Shown piece by piece: positions 1,447 through 45,728 of a stretch of DNA of 59,690 nt; position 1 is the stretch's first letter, and the number at the start of each line of letters is the position of its first letter. Below the pieces are notes generated by a model. It searched no databases. It was given only the letters and a program-made list of their open reading frames with translations, and was not told where the DNA came from. The DNA is from Candidatus Sulfotelmatobacter sp. (GTDB taxonomy: Bacteria > Patescibacteriota > Microgenomatia > Levybacterales > UBA12049), in NCBI GenBank assembly GCA_035568375.1, contig DATMOG010000096.1, forward strand, positions 1-59,690. Direction: 5' to 3'. A program made the translations under genes and the position numbers.

Positions 1447-1561
1447 AAAGTGATTATTGATAGCTTTGAGCTATACTACCACTAGCTAAAAGCGAGCATT
1501 TGAAGCTAATTTATCCTTGACTTTATTTTGGTATTCGTTTATAATACTGACTTATAGTATT

Positions 1562-2440: not shown

Positions 2441-3757
2441 ATGAAAAAGGCACAAAAGGAAATTATTGAAAAAGTAATTCAGCTAAACTTCCGTTCACAT
2501 TATACCGATTTAGTAAATTTTTCTAGAGCCTCATGGAGTTTATCCAGTAGTTTTCTTTCTTCATTGGGAACAATTCAAAAATTATCTCCTAAACAAAGAG
2601 TTGTAATCTTTATGATTGGTAAATCTATGAGATTACTTAGCTCAATAGATACACTTGTTGAAATTGGGTATTGGCCAGAAGCGGAGATATTATTAAGAGC
2701 AATCCTGGAAACGCAACAGTTAATGCTTTACATATTAAAAGATAAAACTAATGAGAGAGCAAAAAAATGGTTAAATAGAGAAAAAGCAACAGAGAGATGG
2801 GATTGGAAAGAAATAACAAAAGAATACGGAAAAACATATGAAACAATGTATTCTAATTTATCTCTTTATCCACATGGTCACATTTTATCGGTACAAAAGT
2901 ATATGAGAATTAAAGATGGAATGCTTTTTGTAGAGAAAGGTTCATTACCCTTGGGCATAGAGCCTCATGGGACGCGGTCTAAAGAAGTATTAGGAACGGC
3001 AGCAATGATAAACGCAGCCATGTGTGAAATCGGGTCATCTCAATTTAACTTGCCAAATGAATGGCACACAGAGCATATACAGCTAGAACAAATGTCTTTT
3101 TGGAAAGAACGACAAAAGAATGTTAAAGAAGCATTAGCTGATTCTGAAAAAAGAAAAATTATTGAAAACATGAGAAAAACAATGAAAAGTTTACATGCTA
3201 ACTTTACCATTGTATTTGTCCATGGATATACAGCATCTCATCTTGCAGATTGGTATCCAACAATTTCTGAAGAGCTTGATAGGCTAGGAATTGATTATGT
3301 TATCCCTGATTTACCAGGAGGCGATACACCACACGTAAACGGTTGGCTAAGTAAATTACATGGAATAGTTAAAAAGATAGATAAACCTCTTATTTTTGTT
3401 GGACATAGTCTTGGGGCGCGAACAGTTCTATTATATCTCGAAAAGTATAAACCTAAAGTAGAGAAAGTGTTTCTTATAGCTGCGTTTGCAAATGACATTG
3501 ATAATGCTAAAAGAAAAGATGGCAAATACTCAACCTTTTTTCAGAATAAAATTGATTTAAAAAATATAAAACCGTTCGTAAAGAAATTTATAGTTATGCA
3601 TTCTGAAGATGATAGTTCTATACCCTACAAACAAGGTAAACAAATAGCAGATGAATTGAATGCAGAGCTTATTACATACAAAGATAGAGATCATTTTAGT
3701 AATCCTAATAATGCATTATTTATTTTAGAACAATTACGAAAAGAGCTAAGATTTTAA
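2441..3757 (+). CDS. fusion protein: DUF5677-like helical N-domain + YdeN/RBBP9-type alpha/beta serine hydrolase C-domain
   Basis: 438 aa. The N-terminal ~250 aa contain IGYWPEAEILLRAILETQQLMLYI, typical of DUF5677-type domains (tentative). The C-terminal ~185 aa have FVHGY, GHSLGA (nucleophile elbow), HSEDD and DRDHF, giving a Ser/Asp/His triad. Confidence 0.7.
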   Translation: MKKAQKEIIEKVIQLNFRSHYTDLVNFSRASWSLSSSFLSSLGTIQKLSPKQRVVIFMIGKSMRLLSSIDTLVEIGYWPEAEILLRAILETQQLMLYILKDKTNERAKKWLNREKATERWDWKEITKEYGKTYETMYSNLSLYPHGHILSVQKYMRIKDGMLFVEKGSLPLGIEPHGTRSKEVLGTAAMINAAMCEIGSSQFNLPNEWHTEHIQLEQMSFWKERQKNVKEALADSEKRKIIENMRKTMKSLHANFTIVFVHGYTASHLADWYPTISEELDRLGIDYVIPDLPGGDTPHVNGWLSKLHGIVKKIDKPLIFVGHSLGARTVLLYLEKYKPKVEKVFLIAAFANDIDNAKRKDGKYSTFFQNKIDLKNIKPFVKKFIVMHSEDDSSIPYKQGKQIADELNAELITYKDRDHFSNPNNALFILEQLRKELRF

Positions 3758-3761
3758 TAAA

Positions 3762-5465
3762 ATGACACAAGAAAATATCTTACCTGATTCTAGAATTAAA
3801 ACATTAACCGTAGACGATATAAGACAGTTGCAAGCTATTGCAAAGCAAAAGTTTTTACTTTCAAGTAGTTATTTTTGGCTAACTATTGAAAATTCTCTTG
3901 AAGATGAAAATGCAACAATGCAGGTACATAAATGCACATGCGGGAATATTGTCTTATCATCCCCCCAATATTTAAAAGAGTGTAAAGAAAACTTTTTAAA
4001 ATATCATAGAACTGCATGTTGGCATCTTGAGGGACCTTTAGATTCTATAGAATATCTAACTGCAAATATTAGTAAAAGAGTTGATCATATAGTCTCGCTA
4101 TTAAAAGAGGATGTTTCATTAGCCATGAAGATGGCAGATGGATTATTACCTGTCGATAATTATAGCAATTTTGACTATTCATTATACAAATTAGAATATG
4201 CGGTTTGGATTCAGAGATCAAAATTTGGCAAAAGCTCTCAAGATACATACCGAATTGAATATTTAACCGCATTTGATGCATTAAAGCTAAAAGCTGGTAA
4301 AAAGAACAAGATTGAATATGAAAAACTAAAAAAATATTATACTGATCCCAAAAAAATGAAAGTATTAAGTGAATCTATGCAAACAGCACTTAATAAACAC
4401 TCTGAAGCATTTAATATCCTTGCTGATGAAGCTTATAAAAGAGTTACCCACGCCTTTTCTCCATCAACTAGATCACTTAAAAATTCTAAAAATAATGCTA
4501 TTAGATTAAATAGAGAGTTAATGTTAGATGCGTATCAAGCTTTCTTTGAAATAAAAGAGATCCTGGAAATCATATACAATTTCATAATTGTTATAAATGG
4601 AGGTACTTTCAATCAAAATCCTTTCGATGGCAAACGGATAAACGGAATTTTAATTCTAGATAAAAAAGGACTTATGATTAAAAAAATTTTGGAAGATTCA
4701 AAAGATAGAAAATTAAAATCCATCATCAACAAAGCTTATGATAGTAAATTTAGGAATAATACAGCAGGACATAATGACTATATAGTTAATCCAGAAAAAA
4801 AGGTTATTAAGGTAAAGTCAAAAAAAATTTCATATTCTTTTCAGTATGCTTCTGAAAAAGAAGAGCGCTTAATCGCTTTAATAACATCCCTCATTAGCTC
4901 ACTAATGTTTTCAATACACGATGATAATATTAAAGAATTGTCTTTAATGGGAATTACTACAATATGGCCAAGAACACAGGAAACAGATAAACCACTACCA
5001 GAAATTATGTCGACTCAATTTTGGAGTAATGCCCAGCTGGACAAAAACGGAGAAAATACTAATGCTCTTAGCTTGAAATTCTCTAAGGATCATAAATTTT
5101 TACATTTTAGCCATAATGAATCTATACCTGAGGGTAGTTTTAAATCTACTCCTTCACGACAATTATATGATTGGTTGATTTCAATTAAAGACAAATCAGA
5201 AATTTCTTATGAAAGAATTATAATTGCTCCTAAAACAGAACTTTTTTTATATCTTGCTAAAGGAGAATTAAAAATCGACAAGAACGACTACTTTATCTTA
5301 GGAATGACGCATCATATGTTAAAAGTTAATCAATCAAAGATTAAAAAAATCATAAAACTACTCAAAAAAAAGAATCTACCTGATTTAAATACGAGTACTT
5401 TTGGTCAAGTACTTTCAGCTGTTAAAAATTATAAAGATAAAAAATTAGATCAAGTTAAAATATGA
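3762..5465 (+). CDS. hypothetical protein (567 aa)
   Basis: 4-nt gap to the upstream gene and an ATGA overlap with the downstream gene. Cys/His cluster HKCTCGN..C..HRTAC near the N-terminus. No family recognised. Confidence 0.65.
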   Translation: MTQENILPDSRIKTLTVDDIRQLQAIAKQKFLLSSSYFWLTIENSLEDENATMQVHKCTCGNIVLSSPQYLKECKENFLKYHRTACWHLEGPLDSIEYLTANISKRVDHIVSLLKEDVSLAMKMADGLLPVDNYSNFDYSLYKLEYAVWIQRSKFGKSSQDTYRIEYLTAFDALKLKAGKKNKIEYEKLKKYYTDPKKMKVLSESMQTALNKHSEAFNILADEAYKRVTHAFSPSTRSLKNSKNNAIRLNRELMLDAYQAFFEIKEILEIIYNFIIVINGGTFNQNPFDGKRINGILILDKKGLMIKKILEDSKDRKLKSIINKAYDSKFRNNTAGHNDYIVNPEKKVIKVKSKKISYSFQYASEKEERLIALITSLISSLMFSIHDDNIKELSLMGITTIWPRTQETDKPLPEIMSTQFWSNAQLDKNGENTNALSLKFSKDHKFLHFSHNESIPEGSFKSTPSRQLYDWLISIKDKSEISYERIIIAPKTELFLYLAKGELKIDKNDYFILGMTHHMLKVNQSKIKKIIKLLKKKNLPDLNTSTFGQVLSAVKNYKDKKLDQVKI

Positions 5466-5698
5466 ATAATACTTATCAAACAAGAGAATTGTCGGAAGCA
5501 GCGGCTCTATTGTTGAACAAACAGCGTTTAGTTGAAATTAAAAGAGAAAAAAAAGTTTGTTGGTTTATATTTGATAACCAAAAAGAATGTGAACGGATAT
5601 CCAATGAGTTCTTTTTTGGAGAACTTATGGTAAATGCGCGTACTTATTATGAAGCAATAACTAGATTAAAAAACAGAATATTTGCACGAAGTAAATGA
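5462..5698 (+). CDS. DUF5659-like small protein (78 aa)
   Basis: TRELSEAAALLLNKQRLVEI..CWFIFDN..FFFGELMVNARTYYEAITRLKNRIF matches the DUF5659 pattern. ATGA overlaps on both sides. Confidence 0.6.
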   Translation: MNNTYQTRELSEAAALLLNKQRLVEIKREKKVCWFIFDNQKECERISNEFFFGELMVNARTYYEAITRLKNRIFARSK

Positions 5699-5823
5699 CA
5701 ATAGAGAGAGCAAGAAAAATATTAGGCAAAAGAGCAGAAAAACTTACAGATGAGGAAATACAAAAAATATTGAATCTGTTGATCTTAATTGCAAATAAAG
5801 CTATTGATGAAACAGTGAAGTAA
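5695..5823 (+). CDS. small helical protein (42 aa), not in the ORF track
   Basis: ATG 5695 overlaps the TGA of the upstream gene (ATGA). Product is MTIERARKILGKRAEKLTDEEIQKILNLLILIANKAIDETVK, with stop TAA at 5821-5823. The translational coupling supports coding. Confidence 0.45.
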   Translation: MTIERARKILGKRAEKLTDEEIQKILNLLILIANKAIDETVK

Positions 5824-5825
5824 TA

Positions 5826-6092
5826 TCAGAGAGCCTCTATCAAGTGCTTTTTTTGTTGATGAGTCAGTCTTTTTATTTCTGCTTCTCTGTGACAGGCAAA
5901 TTTATTAGTTGTATATTGTTCATAATGTACTAATCTTACCGGTCTTCTCACCTCCGTATATTTAGCACCTCCTGGTAATAGACCGTTATGTTGTTTAATT
6001 CTTCTTTCTATATTATTTGTTTTGCCGGTGTAATAAGATCCATCAGAACACTCTACCATATATGTATAATATGCCGGAAATGTTATACGCAT
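5826..6092 (-). CDS. GIY-YIG nuclease family protein (UPF0213/YhbQ-like)
   Basis: 88 aa. YYTYMVECSDGSYYTGKTNNIERRIKQHN carries the GIY/YIG-type motifs plus the conserved Arg. TGATATTAT box 6 nt upstream of the ATG. Confidence 0.85.
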   Translation of the reverse strand: MRITFPAYYTYMVECSDGSYYTGKTNNIERRIKQHNGLLPGGAKYTEVRRPVRLVHYEQYTTNKFACHREAEIKRLTHQQKKHLIEAL

Positions 6093-6098
6093 AGATAA

Positions 6099-6107
6099 AT
6101 AATATCA
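6099..6107 (-). promoter_or_regulatory. extended -10 TGATATTAT, 6 nt upstream of the GIY-YIG ATG
   Basis: Read directly from the sequence. Spacing implies a leaderless transcript. Confidence 0.55.
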
Positions 6108-6184
6108 ATCAAAAGAGTCAACGAAAAGTATCACTTTATTGCAAGCTAAAATAATCTTATAGTATTTTAATTTATAGTATTCTC

Positions 6185-6193
6185 TGCTATAAT
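6185..6193 (+). promoter_or_regulatory. extended -10 TGCTATAAT for the four-gene unit 6211-9405
   Basis: 17 nt upstream of ATG 6211, in the only sizeable gap before the unit. Confidence 0.5.
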
Positions 6194-6210
6194 TAGTTCA
6201 ACTTTATATT

Positions 6211-6774
6211 ATGAATTCAAAACAATACGATAAAAGAGAAAAAGTTCTGAGAAAGCTTACTGTTGAGAGAGCTAATCTAGGTAAAGCAGGAGAGTTTCTT
6301 GTTGCGGGGAAATTATTACTTAATGGATTTAACGTTTATAACGGAGCTATAGACGATGGTATTGATCTTGTCGCAAGAAAGAGAAGAAAATTCTACTATA
6401 TTCAGGTAAAAACCTGTCAAGATATAGATTATGATAGCGGGAAGTTTATGGCAAAAATTAATCTTAGTACTTTATCTAAATATCCTCATAAAAATACATT
6501 TGTAGTATTAGTGTTACATTTCTTAGGACCCACAACTTCACTCGATTTTATGGGAGACCACACAAAATATGATCAGGACTATATTGTCTTACCGGTTAAT
6601 AAACTAATTAGTTTTTTTCAAAAAGAAACAGGTGATATAACTTTTCGAATATATTATTCAATACTAATGGATCTACCGCAAAATACTCATTGGATCGCGA
6701 AACTAAAATATAACAAAAGAGAATTAATTTTGGATGATTTTATGCTTGATTCATTTTGGCAAATAGAAATATAG
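6211..6774 (+). CDS. PD-(D/E)xK endonuclease-like protein (PF11645-type)
   Basis: LGKAGEFLVAGKLLLNGFNVYNGAIDDGIDLVARKRRKFYYIQVKT fits the GxxGE...D...(Q/E)VK core of this nuclease family. First gene of a four-gene unit. Confidence 0.55.
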   Translation: MNSKQYDKREKVLRKLTVERANLGKAGEFLVAGKLLLNGFNVYNGAIDDGIDLVARKRRKFYYIQVKTCQDIDYDSGKFMAKINLSTLSKYPHKNTFVVLVLHFLGPTTSLDFMGDHTKYDQDYIVLPVNKLISFFQKETGDITFRIYYSILMDLPQNTHWIAKLKYNKRELILDDFMLDSFWQIEI

Positions 6775-6780
6775 ATAAAT

Positions 6781-8046
6781 ATGCAAAAATTTGATGGATA
6801 TTACACAGTTAAGGAATTGTCGGAGATTCTTAAAGTAGCGAAATCTACCGTTAGATCCTGGATAAAGAATGGCAAATTAACGGCCACAAAAAGAGCTGGA
6901 ATGCTCCTTATATCTTATGATAATGAAATAAACAATAATTTTTTTGTAGAGCAGATTAGAAAAAAGCATTATCGCCCCAAAAAACCCTATACAGCTGAAA
7001 ATATTAAAGGTTATGCAGAATGGCATGCATTGCTTGATGAATTTTCATGGTTAATTAAAGTGTCATATAGCTCTCCAAATCAAGTGAAAAAGAAAAATTT
7101 TCGAGCTGATCAACTTTTTGCTAATTATATAAATTTGAACAAGATTAAGATTGAAAAAATAAATCGAATGTTTAGATTTAATCCTAAACCGAAAAAGTCA
7201 TTGATTGATGATGATATTAAAAGAGGTTGGTATAATGAAATTTCTTATTTATTGCCACTTAAAAAATCAACATTAGGACATTCATTTAACGATATTACTT
7301 TAAATATGAAAAGCTCCGAGTTGCGTTTTGAATTTCCCTCCTGGAAAATTATTTCTTGTTACTATGCAGTGTATTTTTATTTGCGTTCTATAACGCTATT
7401 TGGATTTGACAATTTCAGATTATCTGAACATAATTCAACAATTAATTCTTTCAAAAATAATATATTGAATCCTCTTAGTAAAACAATTTGGAAATTTCCT
7501 TTTGATATATCATATGTGCCGCAAAAGAGGAAATATCGTTCACAATTGCTAATACAAAATTTAAGACATACTCAATTTAGATATTCAGCATATCCACGAG
7601 AACCTTTTGCGCTACCAATTCAACTTTTTGAGAATATTTATAATAATTTTAAAAAGAGAGGAAAAGCTTTTAAAAAACCATGTATATATACAATATTTGA
7701 TTATTTACATGATTTTCGTACTTGGGCAAATTATTTAGATATCGATAACCTACTTAGTCTTAGAGGCACTGGATATAAAACTTTTTTGGATCAAAACCTT
7801 TCATTAATTCTCTTTTTTATTGGTGGCATCTCTGAACTTTGTTATATTGCCGTTTTTGGTAAGAATGTCTATATAGAAGTCTTACAAAAATTTTATGATG
7901 AGTTTGTTACAAATAGTCCTAGATTAGTAGAAGATTTTATATATACTTCTATCTATCAACGTTTGGCTATTTATAATAAATTAGGTTTAATGGATGCAAG
8001 TATTAAGCTGAAAAAAACAGATATTAATACTGTATCTATTAGTTAA
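6781..8046 (+). CDS. HTH (excisionase/MerR-type) domain protein with large helical C-terminal domain
   Basis: The N-terminus YYTVKELSEILKVAKSTVRSWIKNGKL is an excisionase-type HTH. The C-terminal strings SCYYAVYFYLRS..SEH and LHDFRTWANYLD are only faintly reminiscent of UPF0332/HEPN helices. Confidence 0.55.
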   Translation: MQKFDGYYTVKELSEILKVAKSTVRSWIKNGKLTATKRAGMLLISYDNEINNNFFVEQIRKKHYRPKKPYTAENIKGYAEWHALLDEFSWLIKVSYSSPNQVKKKNFRADQLFANYINLNKIKIEKINRMFRFNPKPKKSLIDDDIKRGWYNEISYLLPLKKSTLGHSFNDITLNMKSSELRFEFPSWKIISCYYAVYFYLRSITLFGFDNFRLSEHNSTINSFKNNILNPLSKTIWKFPFDISYVPQKRKYRSQLLIQNLRHTQFRYSAYPREPFALPIQLFENIYNNFKKRGKAFKKPCIYTIFDYLHDFRTWANYLDIDNLLSLRGTGYKTFLDQNLSLILFFIGGISELCYIAVFGKNVYIEVLQKFYDEFVTNSPRLVEDFIYTSIYQRLAIYNKLGLMDASIKLKKTDINTVSIS

Positions 8047-8064
8047 TAATAATTTAAGATTAAT

Positions 8065-8745
8065 ATGAATACTTTTATAGACAATGATGATATTCAGATA
8101 CATAATGGTCTTAACACTTTGATTGCACAAGATGGATATTTACTGGCTAATAATCTTAGTGAACGATCAACAACACATAAATTGGCTGAGTATTATCAGC
8201 ATTATTTTTCAGAATGGAACGTAGATTGTGAGTATAATCGTAATCTCGGCGGACCCAAAAAAATTTTTATTGATCCAAAAGAAATTTTGCTTCAAATGGC
8301 AGATAATCTTGAAAAGAATGGTTATCTACTTCAATACCTCAAAGATACTAAAGTGTCGAATATTAAAGAGCAATTGATAGATTTAGAAAGACAGATGAGG
8401 AAGCCTAAACTTCGTTACATAAAAGAATTAGATATTGTATTATTTCTTCTTAAATTATCAGATGGTAATTACAAAAAAATGACTATCTATCCAGATATCA
8501 TAATCCACCATAGAGGGACAACCGATAATAATATTGTCATCGAAGCAAAAAAGAGTATAAATCAGGATTTCAAAGCACGCGCATATGATTTGGTTAAATT
8601 GATGACACTTGTCTCATCGAGTGATTTTCATTATAACCGCGGATATTTTATTGATTTGCCGGTAAAAGAAGATTGTAAAAAATTTCAAGGTTTTGCAGAA
8701 TCAAAATTTTTTAGTAAAGATGTTTACGAAATAGCAGCTAAATAA
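8065..8745 (+). CDS. restriction-endonuclease-like (PD-(D/E)xK) fold protein, putative
   Basis: 226 aa. VDCEYNR ... YPDIIIHHRG ... IVIEAKK gives an E / D / ExK arrangement. Otherwise an orphan. Confidence 0.45.
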   Translation: MNTFIDNDDIQIHNGLNTLIAQDGYLLANNLSERSTTHKLAEYYQHYFSEWNVDCEYNRNLGGPKKIFIDPKEILLQMADNLEKNGYLLQYLKDTKVSNIKEQLIDLERQMRKPKLRYIKELDIVLFLLKLSDGNYKKMTIYPDIIIHHRGTTDNNIVIEAKKSINQDFKARAYDLVKLMTLVSSSDFHYNRGYFIDLPVKEDCKKFQGFAESKFFSKDVYEIAAK

Positions 8746-8760
8746 TGCTATTGACGATAC

Positions 8761-9405
8761 ATGGCAGATAATAAACGTACACAAATTATTGACAAAAACC
8801 CAAACAAAATTCCTAACAATATAGTTATCACATGGGGAAATAACAAAGTTAGCTTAGGAAAATTTAGATTTGCTAAAAACGGTTCTTTCTATTTTTCTAC
8901 TCCACAATTTGATAAAACCTCAATGGAAATTGGTAGTGCATTGAAAGTAAAAGATACATTTCAAATAAAATCTAAAGAAGCGACATATCAAACAACAAAA
9001 GGAGTTCATTTATCTCTTCATCCACCGGACGATAAACATGAAAAAGGAATCTTACAGTTGACAGGAGCTGATTCTGCCAAACCAGTAGGAAAGGTTGTCC
9101 TTGATTGGTTTCCTGTTAAGGGTCCCTTTAAATTGTTCCATTTCTTTACATTACCGCTTGATTTAGCTCCAGTGGTGAATTCAAAAGCAATATTTACAAC
9201 CCCTATACCTGAGAAGTATAAAGATTCTTTAGAAATTATCGTAGATATTTTACCGATTGAAAATGGATTAATGTCTGTTCCAATGTATGACAATGATATT
9301 TGGAATTTTACTGGATTTTCTGCATTTGGTTATGCAGTTTCTACCCGCTTAGTTTTTGCAAATCAGAGGCTAGTACCACAAATATATTACATCAATGAGT
9401 TTTAA
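8761..9405 (+). CDS. hypothetical protein (214 aa)
   Basis: 15-nt gap after the upstream gene. Beta-rich orphan and last gene of the four-gene unit. Confidence 0.55.
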   Translation: MADNKRTQIIDKNPNKIPNNIVITWGNNKVSLGKFRFAKNGSFYFSTPQFDKTSMEIGSALKVKDTFQIKSKEATYQTTKGVHLSLHPPDDKHEKGILQLTGADSAKPVGKVVLDWFPVKGPFKLFHFFTLPLDLAPVVNSKAIFTTPIPEKYKDSLEIIVDILPIENGLMSVPMYDNDIWNFTGFSAFGYAVSTRLVFANQRLVPQIYYINEF

Positions 9406-9447: not shown

Positions 9448-9548
9448 GTTAAAAATTTTACATGGTCCAGGAGCGCAGGTTCAAAATTTAGTTTCAAAAA
9501 ACTATATCAAACCAATCAACCCCAGACTAAATTCGAACCTGTTATAAT
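9448..9548 (+). repeat. intergenic module copy A
   Basis: GTTAAAAATTTTACATGGTCCAGGAGCGCAGG .. TTTAGTTTCAAAA .. CCCCAGACTAAATTCGAACCTGTTATAAT. Left and right arms are both present and it ends in an extended -10. Confidence 0.6.
9540..9548 (+). promoter_or_regulatory. extended -10 TGTTATAAT, 6 nt upstream of ATG 9555
   Basis: Terminal part of module copy A. Confidence 0.6.
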
Positions 9549-9554
9549 AACAAC

Positions 9555-10538
9555 ATGACGTTCCAAGATATTCCTCTTCTTTTTGAGATTCTCACGTCAG
9601 AGAATCTTACGCCTGTTTCATCTCATCCTGAGGGAGATCGCATTGTTTGCGAAGATGCTTCAGGTAATAAATTTTTTATGAAAGATTGTAGAGGTATTGA
9701 AGAGAAAATGTTCAATCAAGTCTTTCCTGCAATAAGAAGTCAAAATCTAAATTTTACTATTCTTGAATTGCCAGATTTTAAAAATGTTGTATCGCGAACA
9801 ATTCAACCGGGGCAACAGAGAGATTTTATTTTTGTAAATTATTATGATGGCACTACATTCAATGAGAGCTGGAACGAGACACATCCTCATGGATATGGCG
9901 GAAGAGCACTTGATATATCTTTCGCTGAAAAAGTCCTTAAAATAGTACAAGATTTTTCACTGATTAATCTTACGACTTTGGCACCTTTTAATCTTCCTAC
10001 ATTTGATTTTAGTGTTTGGAAGAACGATATTTTCCCATTATTATCTGCCAACCTCATTCAAAATGGCTCTTTAACACAAGATCATATAAATAAGGCTGAT
10101 ACAATTCTTTCGTCAGCAAATATTTTTCAACATTCTCAGACGATACTAACGAATGGAGATTTTTACCCCAGAAATTTTATCGAGCTTTCCTCAGGTAAAA
10201 TTGTTGTGATTGACTGGGAGGGCAGAGGAAGAGAACATATAAGATTAAATGGAGGTACGCATGCCTTTGCGAGTCAAAGAAATGCTTTTTTAAATTATAT
10301 TGAGAACCATGCTGCGTTTTTCTTTGTTCATATGTGGGGTAACCATGCAGTACAAAAAAAATTTATGACAGACATTACTCAAGCTTTTAATTTAACAGCT
10401 GATGATATCCAAGCTGCTATACTTATTAAATCTTTAGAACAAGGTGCAGCATTTGGAGGGGGTTTTCTCTCTCATAGGGAAGCAGAAATTTTTGTACATG
10501 CTCTTGAGCTAGATTATATAAATGATTTTATACAGTGA
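9555..10538 (+). CDS. phosphotransferase (APH/choline-kinase-like) family protein
   Basis: NGDFYPRNFI and VVIDWEG correspond to the catalytic loop (HGDxxxxN, with His replaced by Asn) and the metal-binding Asp segment of APH-type kinases. Confidence 0.6.
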   Translation: MTFQDIPLLFEILTSENLTPVSSHPEGDRIVCEDASGNKFFMKDCRGIEEKMFNQVFPAIRSQNLNFTILELPDFKNVVSRTIQPGQQRDFIFVNYYDGTTFNESWNETHPHGYGGRALDISFAEKVLKIVQDFSLINLTTLAPFNLPTFDFSVWKNDIFPLLSANLIQNGSLTQDHINKADTILSSANIFQHSQTILTNGDFYPRNFIELSSGKIVVIDWEGRGREHIRLNGGTHAFASQRNAFLNYIENHAAFFFVHMWGNHAVQKKFMTDITQAFNLTADDIQAAILIKSLEQGAAFGGGFLSHREAEIFVHALELDYINDFIQ

Positions 10539-10600: not shown

Positions 10601-10724
10601 AGCTCAGGATATTTAATTCTGTTATACCACTCAACCGTTCGGAAATCGTCAACTATTGCCAGCTTAATTTTTTAGCTTCAAAGAGTCAAAAAAGGCATTC
10701 ACTGTTTCGAACTTCTGGTATAAT
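10601..10724 (+). repeat. intergenic module copy B
   Basis: AGCTCAGGATATTTAATTC..GTTCGGAAATCGTCAACTATTGCCAGC..TTTTAGCTTCAAA..TTTCGAACTTCTGGTATAAT. 55/63 identical to copy C over 10601-10663. Confidence 0.8.
10716..10724 (+). promoter_or_regulatory. extended -10 TGGTATAAT, 6 nt upstream of ATG 10731
   Basis: Terminal part of module copy B. Confidence 0.6.
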
Positions 10725-10730
10725 TACTTA

Positions 10731-12107
10731 ATGAATTTGACCTCCTTAAACCCATCAAAAAACTTTGAAACCATAGGCGAAGTGGAAATATCTACAGAAA
10801 AAGAAATCACAGAATCGGTTGAACAAGCAAAAAAAGCATTTCTTCATTGGTCTACTATTACGATTAAAGAGCGGTCTGATGCAATTCAGTCCTTTGTAAA
10901 TATCGCAAAGATAAAAACTGAAGATATTGCTCAACTTATTGCAAAAGAAACAGGCCGCCCAATAAAAAGTGCGAGAGCGAACGTTACAGAGGGAATACGA
11001 TATTTTGAAGAGTATATAAGTATCGCTGATAAATATCTTTCACCTAAAGTTACTATTGAAACAGATAAAGAGCTTCACAAAGTATATCGTGAACCGTGGG
11101 GTGTTATTGCTTGTATTTGTCCATGGAATTATCCATTTCTCAATGTCGCATGGCAATGCGGACAAGCACTTATTGCGGGCAATACCATTGTTTATAAAAA
11201 TTCAGAAGAGAATCCTCTCTTCGCAAAACTGCTTTCTGAACTTATTGAAAAATCTGACATTCCAAATGGTGTATTTAATGTTATTTATGGTGACGGAAAA
11301 ACTGGAGATTTTTTGGTACACCAAGATATCAATATGATTTCATTTACGGGAAGTACAAAAGTGGGACAACATTTATCAAAAATTGCAGCTGAAAAATTTA
11401 TTCCAATCGTTACCGAATTAGGAGGATCTGCTCCTGGCATTGTTTTTGAAGATGTAGATATTGATGATAAATTGATTGAATACATTATCGAATTGCGGTT
11501 GACCAATAACGGACAAGCATGTGATGCAATCAAACGACTGATTGTTCATGAAAGTAAGTTTAAAGAGGTTGTCAAAAAAGTTTGTGATGTGATGAAAAAG
11601 AAAAAAATTGGTGATGCTCTTAGTGAAGATACAGATGTCGGACCACTTATAGCAAAAAGACAAATTGATTTACTTGAAGCACAAGTAAATGATGCAATTA
11701 AAAAGGGTGCAAAAGTAGAGATTGGTGCGAACACGCCAAAAGACCTGAAAGGAGCATATTATTCACCAACTGTTTTAACAAACATTAATCCGACTATGCG
11801 AGTCTGGCATGAAGAAACATTTGGTCCAGTTTTGCCAATTATTCCATTCAAAGATGAAGATCAATCAATTAGACAAGCAAACCATACTGAGTATGGTCTG
11901 AGTGCGCATGTGTTTACTAACGATAAAAAACGTTTTAAGAGAGTGGCTCGTCAATTACAAGCTGGCAGTGTTGCCCAAAATTTTACGGAGTATTGGAACT
12001 TCAATAATCCTTTTGGTGGATATAAAAAATCCGGTATGGGAAGAATACATGGTGAATACGGTTTTGACGATTTCACTCAAGTAAAACTAGTAGCTGAAGA
12101 AAAGTAA
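10731..12107 (+). CDS. NAD(P)-dependent aldehyde dehydrogenase
   Basis: 458 aa. ELGGSAP (catalytic Glu), NNGQACDA (catalytic Cys), FTGST and EETFGP are present. Confidence 0.9.
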   Translation: MNLTSLNPSKNFETIGEVEISTEKEITESVEQAKKAFLHWSTITIKERSDAIQSFVNIAKIKTEDIAQLIAKETGRPIKSARANVTEGIRYFEEYISIADKYLSPKVTIETDKELHKVYREPWGVIACICPWNYPFLNVAWQCGQALIAGNTIVYKNSEENPLFAKLLSELIEKSDIPNGVFNVIYGDGKTGDFLVHQDINMISFTGSTKVGQHLSKIAAEKFIPIVTELGGSAPGIVFEDVDIDDKLIEYIIELRLTNNGQACDAIKRLIVHESKFKEVVKKVCDVMKKKKIGDALSEDTDVGPLIAKRQIDLLEAQVNDAIKKGAKVEIGANTPKDLKGAYYSPTVLTNINPTMRVWHEETFGPVLPIIPFKDEDQSIRQANHTEYGLSAHVFTNDKKRFKRVARQLQAGSVAQNFTEYWNFNNPFGGYKKSGMGRIHGEYGFDDFTQVKLVAEEK

Positions 12108-13046: not shown

Positions 13047-13168
13047 GTAAAAAGTTCCAAGATCGTCAAGGCTTGCCAGCTTTGATTTTTGCCACATTTT
13101 AGCCTCAGAAATTTCTCAAAAATGCCTTGACCAATCCTGGATTCGAACTGGTAATCTCATGATATAAT
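13047..13168 (+). repeat. intergenic module copy D (fullest copy)
   Basis: GTAAAAAGTTCCAAGATCGTCAAGGCTTGCCAGCT..TTTGCCACATTTTAGCCTCAGAAATT..GCCTTGACCAATCCTGGATTCGAACTGGTAAT..TGATATAAT. Confidence 0.85.
13160..13168 (+). promoter_or_regulatory. extended -10 TGATATAAT, 8 nt upstream of ATG 13177
   Basis: Terminal part of module copy D. Confidence 0.55.
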
Positions 13169-29759: not shown

Positions 29760-29768
29760 TGGTATAAT
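29760..29768 (+). promoter_or_regulatory. extended -10 TGGTATAAT, 6 nt upstream of ATG 29775 (HD protein)
   Basis: Divergent partner of 29670-29678. Confidence 0.6.
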
Positions 29769-33055: not shown

Positions 33056-33116
33056 AGCCCCTTTTTTATTATAGCGTATATTATATCAATAAATAAATTG
33101 CAATTTCTTCGTTCTT

Positions 33117-36669: not shown

Positions 36670-37716
36670 CTATTTTTGTCTCTCTCTTAATTTGTAGTAA
36701 CTTGTTTTAGTTTTACCATATTTCCTTACCAGTTTTTTAGAAACAAGTGATGCTAGTAGTGCATGAGCTTGTTGGCGGCTTACGACAAAAGCTTGCTCGA
36801 TGTCTGATGTCTTAATCGCTTTTTTATTGATAACAATTTGTAGTACTTCTTCTTCACGAGGTGTAACTAAGACTCGTTTTTCACCCTCTATTTTATCAAG
36901 ATGAGATCTTTTTAATTCATCAATACGAGCAAGTGCGCCTTGTAATGATACTGAAATACCTTCAAGAAAATATTCAATCCATGAAGTTTTATCTCCGTTA
37001 TCTGCGCTATGGAGACAATCAGAATAGAGATGTCTATCAATATCATAATAATCATCGATAATAAAATATTTAGAAACTTCATATTGTTCAAATAGCAAAT
37101 AATAGGTTGTGAGAATACGTGCTAGACGACCATTGCCATCAAAAAAAGGATGTATATAAGCAAATTGGTGATGTAATATCGCTGCTTTCAAGAGAGGATG
37201 AAGCTCTTTTTCTTCTTTTAACCAAATGAAAAGCTCATCTAATGCAGAGTGTATTTCTGTTGCCATATGAAATGGTGGATTATGTTTGACGACAATTTCC
37301 TGCTTGGTTTTATGTCCTACAAAGACAGGACCATTTCGCACTTGTCCCAAATTTTCTTTTTCAATTCCTTTCATAAGTGTTTTATGTAATTTTTCTGTTA
37401 ATGTAACAGTAATTGGTGTATGTTCGCGAACAAGATTTGGCAAACTTGTGATGATTGTGAAGTAATTTTTGACTTCCTGTTCTGATTTTGTAGTTGGTAT
37501 TTGATCTCCAAGAACGACGTTTGTAACATCTTGAGGCGAAAGTGGGTTTCCTTCAATACTTGTAGAATAATGGGTTGCAAGGATTTGATTCTCTTGAGAA
37601 AGACGTAAAGAAAGTGAAGGAATTAGCTTTTCTCCTTGTATTTTTCCATATAATCGTTCAATAGTGGCCAAAAGGTTGAGCATTCGAAAATTGAGGGTAA
37701 ATTGTGGCTTGAACAT
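36670..37716 (-). CDS. Fic family protein (Fido domain + C-terminal winged HTH)
   Basis: HPFFDGNGRLAR active-site motif. N-terminal STSIEGN fits the (S/T)xxxE(G/N) inhibitory-helix motif. Confidence 0.9.
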   Translation of the reverse strand: MFKPQFTLNFRMLNLLATIERLYGKIQGEKLIPSLSLRLSQENQILATHYSTSIEGNPLSPQDVTNVVLGDQIPTTKSEQEVKNYFTIITSLPNLVREHTPITVTLTEKLHKTLMKGIEKENLGQVRNGPVFVGHKTKQEIVVKHNPPFHMATEIHSALDELFIWLKEEKELHPLLKAAILHHQFAYIHPFFDGNGRLARILTTYYLLFEQYEVSKYFIIDDYYDIDRHLYSDCLHSADNGDKTSWIEYFLEGISVSLQGALARIDELKRSHLDKIEGEKRVLVTPREEEVLQIVINKKAIKTSDIEQAFVVSRQQAHALLASLVSKKLVRKYGKTKTSYYKLRERQK

Positions 37717-42895: not shown

Positions 42896-42904
42896 ATTAT
42901 AACA
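42896..42904 (-). promoter_or_regulatory. extended -10 TGTTATAAT, 6 nt upstream of the nth ATG
   Basis: Read directly from the sequence. Confidence 0.6.
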
Positions 42905-45719: not shown

Positions 45720-45728
45720 ATTATAGCA
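45720..45728 (-). promoter_or_regulatory. extended -10 TGCTATAAT, 6 nt upstream of the BdbC/DsbB ATG
   Basis: Read directly from the sequence. Confidence 0.6.

Follow-up and report, generated by a model that had tools for sequence, protein, structure and literature searches.

The four-gene cluster and its predicted transcript

We analysed a stretch of DNA of 59,690 nt (contig DATMOG010000096.1, forward strand; hereafter the window) from a Candidatus Levyibacteriota bacterium, a member of the candidate phyla radiation (CPR), and in particular a cluster of four genes at positions 6185–9405, which the original prediction, made from the sequence alone, had proposed as a candidate defence or addiction system. 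The organism was assigned from the taxon names within the 90%-identity cluster of its HflX protein. The list of open reading frames (ORFs) confirms four ORFs on the + strand, namely gene 1 (6211–6774, 187 aa), gene 2 (6781–8046, 421 aa), gene 3 (8065–8745, 226 aa) and gene 4 (8761–9405, 214 aa), with intergenic gaps of 6, 18 and 15 nt. No sampled locus other than those of this strain contains all four families, and one family is part of a defence system that has been described before; the idea of one four-component system is therefore not supported. With moderate confidence we favour another reading: defence-type genes that were acquired separately have been stacked in this strain and are probably transcribed together, and they do not form a conserved four-part machine.

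An extended -10 promoter box (TGCTATAAT, 6185–6193, + strand), read from the sequence, stands 17 nt ahead of the ATG start codon of gene 1 and is the predicted promoter of a four-gene transcript. As originally claimed, it is the single box of this kind ahead of the unit: a scan of the window revealed no TGNTATAAT box preceding gene 2, 3 or 4, and a TGTTATAAT box (9540–9548, + strand), separated by 6 nt from the following gene, whose ATG is at 9555, marks the downstream boundary. Since the boxes at 6185 and 9540 bracket genes 1–4 and none precedes genes 2–4, a single transcript is the simplest reading, and all four genes probably share one that starts at the 6185 box. No intrinsic terminator was predicted 3' of gene 4. 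An internal TGGTATAAT box within gene 2 (7228–7236, + strand), with no start codon close behind it, could be a chance match or an internal promoter. The tight spacing is mildly unusual: 35% of the 40 co-directional gaps in the window are of 20 nt or less, so that three such gaps in a row would be expected by chance with a probability of roughly 0.04.

Gene 3 is a long-form relative of PD-lambda-3 A

Our scan with the PADLOC-DB v2.0.0 profiles, which were used for all defence searches, identified gene 3 as a relative of component A of the PD-lambda-3 defence system (profile PD-Lambda-3_A, PDLC03986, E-value 1.8e-22). In a phmmer comparison with the A protein from E. coli (E-value 7.9e-21) the similarity falls into two blocks, aa 13–67 and 137–197, and gene 3 therefore carries a 70-aa insert (aa 68–136, nt 8266–8472) that separates the WNVDCEYN strand from the PD motif. 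This insert defines a "long form" of the family of about 220–240 aa, whose taxon-named members come mostly from the CPR (Kaiserbacteria, Sungiibacteriota, Paceibacterota, Saccharibacteria). A tblastn search of plasmids with gene 3 recovered an enterobacterial family. The E / PD / ExK motif that had been read in gene 3 is borne out by an alignment of 37 sequences, in which P143, D144, E160 and K162 are invariant, together with H38, W51, D54, E56, K65, D175 and K178, and E33 is nearly so. As the catalytic columns are invariant, the predicted nuclease site is intact, and by motif (E33 as the acidic residue expected in helix 1, D144 as that of strand 2, E160-x-K162 as the ExK of strand 3) gene 3 is assigned to the PD-(D/E)xK superfamily. 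A profile search of the PDB gave a weak match to the restriction-endonuclease-like structure 3ijm, which is not significant (E-value 0.92).

PD-lambda-3 was recovered by Vassallo et al. (2022) and appears in their supplement as "Nuclease, HEPN", comprising three proteins over 2759 bp in strain ECOR28; its mode of action is abortive infection (PMC13190303). As the reference we used a locus on an E. coli plasmid (L139) whose span of 2759 bp is equal to the figure in that supplement, and which follows the BREX gene brxL at a distance of a few kilobases, with an IS903B insertion in between. It encodes A (159 aa, PADLOC A 2.3e-100), B (267 aa, a Hypoth_Ymh/TIGR02391 HEPN protein, PADLOC B 1.2e-179) and C (477 aa, with a match to Mrr_cat and to the beta-propeller-like DUF5074). 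Gene 3 is homologous to A across both conserved halves, with the WNVDCEYN, PD and ExK motifs in common, and each cluster contains a second nuclease of the PD-(D/E)xK superfamily, gene 1 here and the Mrr_cat protein C there. The differences are more extensive: the insert is present in gene 3 (226 aa) and not in the E. coli protein, the gene order is not the same, genes 2 and 4 have no counterpart in PD-lambda-3, and neither the HEPN protein nor the Mrr_cat/beta-propeller-like protein is found in our cluster. No PADLOC B match at an E-value up to 1 and no Pfam Hypoth_Ymh match was obtained among the ten surrounding proteins. We also considered gene 1 or gene 4 as parts of a split C component and rejected this possibility, as gene 1 shows no similarity to C in BLASTP and the gene 4 profile aligns to it with a probability of 0.3%. 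By sequence comparison, then, the cluster is not a PD-lambda-3 system, with A present and B and C absent. The original prediction did not recognise the combination as a named system; one member, gene 3, belongs to the A family of a described one.

The gene 3 family in restriction-modification operons

We analysed the genomic context of the gene 3 family (hereafter the A family) in its 80 best genome loci (loci are designated L followed by a number). The commonest context is a type I restriction-modification (RM) operon, with hsdM upstream, hsdS downstream and hsdR beyond it. The A-family gene is placed between hsdM and hsdS in about 15–19 of the 80 loci, frequently with start/stop overlaps of -4. 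Consistent figures came from BLAST clustering, where clusters of 17–19 loci correspond to hsdM, hsdS and hsdR around the A-family gene, and from PADLOC and Pfam assignments of the 97 adjacent co-directional ORFs (MTase_I in 19, Specificity_I in 15). The embedded genes, situated at around position 8000 of the locus in most cases, were found in L003, L004, L012, L013, L015, L017–L020, L026, L032, L036, L038, L039, L046, L054, L055, L065 and L075, which represent many phyla as well as Archaea (Methanobacterium, Methanosaeta).

Other partners are diverse. They include a small protein that matches AbiJ weakly, has the motif RNYAAH and appears HEPN-like from its sequence (L004), PIN-like (L002) and trypsin-like or protease-like (L006) proteins, likewise read from the sequence, an unrelated 421-aa protein (L008), a degenerate PDDEXK_5-like ORF (L001) and a 308-aa protein ending in NIRSMGKAHG (L133, which holds the closest gene 3 homologue inspected in context, with 61% identity). 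A relative of the HEPN protein B was found in none of the 80 loci, and a weak relative of C in one (L050). Because the immediate partners differ from locus to locus, the A family behaves as a module coupled to many different partners.

Gene 3 and the RM-embedded genes are members of one family of small nucleases, the difference being that the latter are flanked by hsdM and hsdS and gene 3 by genes 2 and 4; neither MTase_I nor Specificity_I is among the 25 best of the 28 PADLOC families matched by the 63 ORFs of the window. That an accessory nuclease is located inside the operon of another defence system suggests that it might act as a back-up or in abortive infection. A conceptual parallel is provided by PrrC, which is embedded in the EcoprrI locus. 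The analogy would be functional only; PrrC is an ABC-ATPase anticodon nuclease and is not related to the A family.

Gene 1 is a predicted minimal PDDEXK_5-type nuclease

Gene 1 matches PDDEXK_5 (PF11645) with 20.8 bits (E-value 4e-4), which is under the Pfam gathering score of 26.1 bits; further weak Pfam matches are Mrr_cat_2, DUF4365 and Mrr_cat (the last of them sub-threshold, E-value 0.06–0.2). It is also matched by phrog_5018 of PHROGs (1.8e-9) and, weakly and over 50 residues, by the PADLOC candidate PDC-S01 (5.7e-4); a sequence search of the PDB returned nothing significant. An exhaustive HMMER search recovered 262 representatives at an E-value up to 1e-3, among them just three full-length relatives (52–65% identity). 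The remaining ones are mostly about 240–260 aa long and align to gene 1 by their C-terminal half; several of these longer relatives score at or near the PF11645 cut-off (P0185 41.1 bits, P0202 26.2 bits), and one has an N-terminal helix-turn-helix (HTH) domain of the HARE-HTH type. The GxxGE / D / QVK core of PF11645-type nucleases, which had been noticed in gene 1, withstood the comparison with 19 relatives: G24, G27, E28, D48, G50, D52, Q65 and K67 are invariant in all 20 sequences. PDDEXK_5 nucleases, including the forms fused to HARE-HTH, share this core, and the full length of gene 1 aligns to their C-terminal nuclease domain; unlike them, gene 1 falls below the family cut-off and has no N-terminal DNA-recognition domain of the HARE-HTH kind. 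We predict that it is a minimal, stand-alone PD-(D/E)xK nuclease with an intact active site.

The close homologues of gene 1 are found next to a tyrosine integrase gene (L140–L142), between a Rep gene and a pair of HNH and C5-methylase genes (L143), and 3' of a DUF6602 gene. Near the three of them there are no relatives of genes 2, 3 or 4.

Gene 2 combines an excisionase-type HTH with a conserved helical domain

Residues 7–44 of gene 2 (nt 6799–6912) were identified as HTH_17 (PF12728; 35.5 bits versus a cut-off of 27, E-value 1.2e-8) and match the excisionase family TIGR01764 (31.3 bits versus 28.8, E-value 1.9e-7). Foldseek searches of the PDB and BFVD with an AlphaFold2 model of the protein (pLDDT 89.4, pTM 0.79) returned matches to the HTH alone, namely Xis (4j2n) and BldC (6ama), both with a probability of 1.0, and the MerR family. 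The excisionase-type HTH originally assigned to the N-terminus is therefore well founded. Beyond it, no match was obtained in Pfam, NCBIfam, PHROGs or PADLOC, a profile search of the PDB found the HTH and nothing else, and the domain of about 350 aa has no Foldseek match at an E-value up to 0.001 in the PDB or BFVD. The description of this part as an orphan helical sequence was right as to its structure, as the model is all-helical beyond the HTH, and wrong as to its being an orphan. Gene 2 has about 90 homologous clusters from several phyla, roughly 420 aa in length and with 40–55% identity, of which few are named to a taxon (Anaerolineales, Candidatus Thiodiazotropha, Dyadobacter); in an alignment of 28 sequences, 39 columns are invariant, and many of these hold aromatic or charged residues. 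Sequence and model together indicate that gene 2 is an HTH of the Xis/MerR/BldC type fused to a conserved all-alpha domain without detectable relatives of a known kind. Small HTH_17 proteins such as Xis, BldC and MerR-type regulators, and also Mad1 of MADS, resemble the first approximately 45 residues of gene 2 in sequence and predicted fold, but these proteins have 50–70 aa, and gene 2 adds about 350 residues.

Analysis of 52 metagenome loci of gene 2 homologues by BLAST clustering and Pfam revealed no conserved neighbour. The genes around them are a mixture of housekeeping genes, transposases, integrases and a few defence genes (CAP12/Pycsar-type TIR, AbiJ N-terminal domain, AbiEii). On the long contigs that we inspected, one homologue has an acyltransferase on one side and a melibiase on the other (L134), and another stands amid GrpB, PhzF and ASCH genes (L146). 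The third (L147) is part of a mobile element with flanking integrase and resolvase genes. There, at 5241–8554, the gene 2 homologue lies between a gene for a 226-aa HNH nuclease, 80 nt upstream of it, and an overlapping gene for an uncharacterised 437-aa protein, so that a nuclease is again combined with gene 2, although the nuclease is an unrelated one. Overall, gene 2 has a patchy distribution and mostly occurs alone.

Gene 4 is a near-orphan

Gene 4 has no match in the four profile libraries and two homologues (46–47% identity), both on short contigs; its original description as an orphan was thus nearly correct. An AlphaFold2 model based on the three sequences is unusable (pLDDT 36.6), and the protein is predicted to be beta-rich. 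One homologue (L136) is encoded 3' of a gene (282–1277) for a 331-aa protein whose N-terminal domain is TIR-like or nucleoside 2-deoxyribosyltransferase-like (PADLOC TIR effector 2.6e-7), which hints that the gene 4 family, too, occurs in conflict-gene neighbourhoods.

Co-occurrence of the four families

With tblastn we detected no relatives of genes 1, 2 or 4 in the 80 gene 3 loci and none of genes 1, 3 or 4 in the 52 gene 2 loci. When profile hidden Markov models of the four families were compared with every ORF of 147 loci, two co-occurrences appeared. One of them (L138) is the same strain as the window; the other (L055) is a type I RM locus from Patescibacteria with the order hsdS, A-family gene, hsdR and a nuclease gene whose product resembles gene 1 (hhalign probability 96.9%). 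In L001 an ORF overlaps the start of the A-family gene; its product is related to the L055 nuclease (BLASTP 2e-12) but degenerate, without the GxxGE motif and with P in place of the catalytic K. The complete cluster is known from one strain, in two assemblies, and the 90% clusters of genes 1–4 each hold the window's own sequence alone. Each of the four families thus occurs without the other three in other genomes.

A variable, conflict-gene-rich region next to hflX

Several neighbours of the cluster had been cited in support of a defence or mobile island. The GIY-YIG nuclease (1.2e-16), the XRE-type HTH protein (Pfam) and one DUF5659 protein (1.9e-7) were recovered in our searches, while a second, DUF5659-like one (77–343) shows weak similarity to the first and no more. 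The remainder of the window is ordinary chromosome (TypA/BipA, TruB, HflX, glycosyltransferases). Gene 4 is located 5 kb from hflX, and in three genomes whose HflX is 93–95% identical (L148–L150) none of the four genes is present within 10 kb of hflX; the flank is instead occupied by BrnT/BrnA, TacA/acetyltransferase, CopG-type genes, IS21, NERD, RhuM, PDDEXK_3, hsdS and KilA-N (at 11269–21152 in L149 and 12257–14016 in L148). The hflX flank therefore looks like a hotspot for variable conflict genes, and the region of the cluster varies within this lineage and abounds in conflict genes, since close relatives carry other such genes there and none of the four.

Neither an integrase nor a resolvase or Rep gene was found in the window with the four probes used, and scans of it for tRNAs and Rfam families were empty. 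Genes 1, 2 and 4 are absent from the viral contigs of IMG/VR, where gene 3 has one match; a phage origin of the four genes was rejected on the basis of this near-empty result and of a single weak match in a phage collection. The addiction part of the original proposal gained no specific support: none of the four genes matched a toxin-antitoxin family in the Pfam, PADLOC and NCBIfam scans.

Weighing the interpretations

The original idea of a candidate defence system thus divides into a defence character, which is supported, and a single four-part system, which is not. The defence character is backed by these observations: gene 3 is a PD-lambda-3 A relative whose family is found inside type I RM operons; homologues of gene 1 occur near an integrase or near Rep, HNH and C5-methylase genes, and one of gene 4 near a TIR-like gene; and the region is absent from close relatives, whose corresponding flank holds toxin-antitoxin pairs and the other conflict genes listed above.

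A number of points weigh against a stack of separately acquired genes. The short gaps behind one promoter-like box have the look of a functional operon, and since the partners of gene 3 vary, the lack of conservation is compatible with a functional link in this particular strain. There may also be a loose association of gene 1 and gene 3, seen in two of the 80 loci if the degenerate L001 is included with L055. The third-codon-position GC content of the cluster (GC3 0.20–0.23) is the same as in the flanking genes, without a signature of recent transfer. The context samples are thin for gene 1 (three contexts) and gene 4 (two), homologues of gene 2 stand amid housekeeping genes on two of the three long contigs, and a role of the four genes in phage defence in this lineage is one that we infer from sequence.

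The rival that fares best, though we regard it as unlikely, is a single lineage-specific, multi-component defence system, in which gene 2 would be a DNA-binding sensor or regulator, genes 1 and 3 the effectors and gene 4 an accessory component. It would account for the spacing and the one promoter-like box. Gene 1 lacks a targeting domain that gene 2 might supply by binding DNA in trans, and A-family members are usually coupled to some variable partner. Against this, the families co-occur in none of the 147 loci apart from L055 (and the strain itself), gene 2 has no conserved partner wherever else it was sampled, and the whole cluster is confined to one strain.

We consider it slightly less likely still that the gene 2 family is a new and widespread defence or conflict protein, acting alone or with variable partners, which has here been recruited to control two PD-(D/E)xK nucleases, and that the long form of PD-lambda-3 A works in this organism without a HEPN partner. 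The family is indeed widely, if patchily, spread over CPR, Chloroflexi, Bacteroidota and Gammaproteobacteria.

Rather improbable, in our opinion, is a divergent abortive-infection pair similar to PD-lambda-3, formed by genes 2 and 3 or by genes 3 and 4, in which the HEPN protein has been exchanged for a non-homologous one. Gene 3 is a clear A-family member, in PD-lambda-3 and several of its relatives A adjoins a helical protein with a HEPN-type motif (B of L139, and the partners in L004 and L133), and the gene that precedes gene 3 by 18 nt, gene 2, encodes a helical protein. However, the profile of gene 2 aligns to the Ymh HEPN protein B with an hhalign probability of 0.07%, no HEPN structure is among its Foldseek matches at an E-value up to 0.001, and its sole conserved R/H pair is R213-x3-H217, i.e. 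Rx3H, where the HEPN motif is Rx4-6H; the possibility that gene 2 supplies a HEPN partner for gene 3 was rejected on these grounds. A kinship of gene 2 with the upstream partners of gene 3 homologues in L008 (421 aa), L133 (308 aa) and L004 (168 aa) was rejected as well, as there is no similarity, and in the sampled loci homologues of genes 2 and 4 never adjoin an A-family gene.

Finally, that the four are not defence genes at all, but mobile-element remnants (an excisionase-like HTH plus nucleases) or DNA-repair or housekeeping nucleases, appears the least probable, even though gene 2 has an excisionase-type HTH, homologues of genes 1 and 2 are sometimes found near integrases, transposases or resolvases, and housekeeping neighbours surround gene 2 homologues in L134 and L146, because the window has no integrase, resolvase or Rep match to our probes, the four genes are all but missing from IMG/VR, gene 3 comes from an experimentally validated defence family, and gene 2 with its 421 aa far exceeds the size of an excisionase.

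If the cluster is, as we prefer to think, a stack of separately acquired defence-type genes, it might work as follows. One transcript would run from the extended -10 box at 6185 through all four genes. Gene 3 would serve as a metal-dependent endonuclease module that works with whichever partner it is coupled to, the partners elsewhere being HEPN, PIN-like or protease-like proteins or a type I RM complex; upon infection gene 3 would cut nucleic acid and lead to abortive infection, the outcome reported for PD-lambda-3. Gene 1 may act alone or borrow its targeting from a partner such as gene 2, and gene 2 may bind DNA, either to regulate the operon or as a single-gene module by itself.

Wider significance

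The cluster teaches some caution: in the compact genome of a CPR bacterium, closely packed nuclease-like genes in one operon do not in themselves amount to a new system. It contains nothing categorically new: a variant defence component is accompanied by a PD-(D/E)xK nuclease of an ordinary kind, by a near-orphan and by one representative of a large, uncharacterised family. The PD-lambda-3 A family proves to be far wider than the E. coli system, and with roughly a fifth of the sampled loci placing it between hsdM and hsdS, the data point to a modular nuclease that is accessory to restriction systems. CPR bacteria possess a long form of it with the 70-aa insert and no HEPN partner, and gene 2 stands for a large and well conserved family, for the main domain of which no relatives were detected. 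To our knowledge, defence in CPR bacteria is poorly explored, and these proteins are therefore cheap candidates for heterologous testing.

Promoter boxes and other features of the window

The TGNTATAAT box occurs 16 times in the window, compared with 7.8 +/- 2.6 expected, and mostly a few bases 5' of start codons. Besides the one at 9540–9548, examples are located on the + strand at 10716–10724, 13160–13168 and 29760–29768 and on the - strand at 33080–33088, 42896–42904 and 45720–45728; many end just 6–8 nt (up to about 25 nt) ahead of an ATG. This short distance suggests that many mRNAs of this Levyibacteriota genome are leaderless or nearly so. Genes 2–4, too, are not preceded by a visible Shine-Dalgarno-like motif.

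Just 5' of the -10 box of gene 1 there are two exact copies of the 10-mer TTATAGTATT (6157–6166 and 6172–6181, + strand), 15 nt apart. The third and last exact copy in the window (1552–1561) directly precedes an ATG at 1562. As TTATAGTATT includes a -10-like TATAGT, the copies may be extra -10-like elements or an operator; the operator explanation is weak, because the motif is not enriched once one mismatch is allowed (22 found versus 18 expected).

A second tight unit (2441–5698, + strand) precedes the cluster. It encodes a fusion of DUF5677 with an alpha/beta-hydrolase (438 aa), a 567-aa protein without a profile match and a DUF5659 protein, with gaps of +4 and -4 nt, and could be another conflict module. 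Far from the cluster, a Fic-domain protein with the motif HPFFDGNGR is encoded at 36670–37713 on the - strand; it is presumably this ORF that gives the best defence-model match in the window, PADLOC SoFic (2.4e-55).

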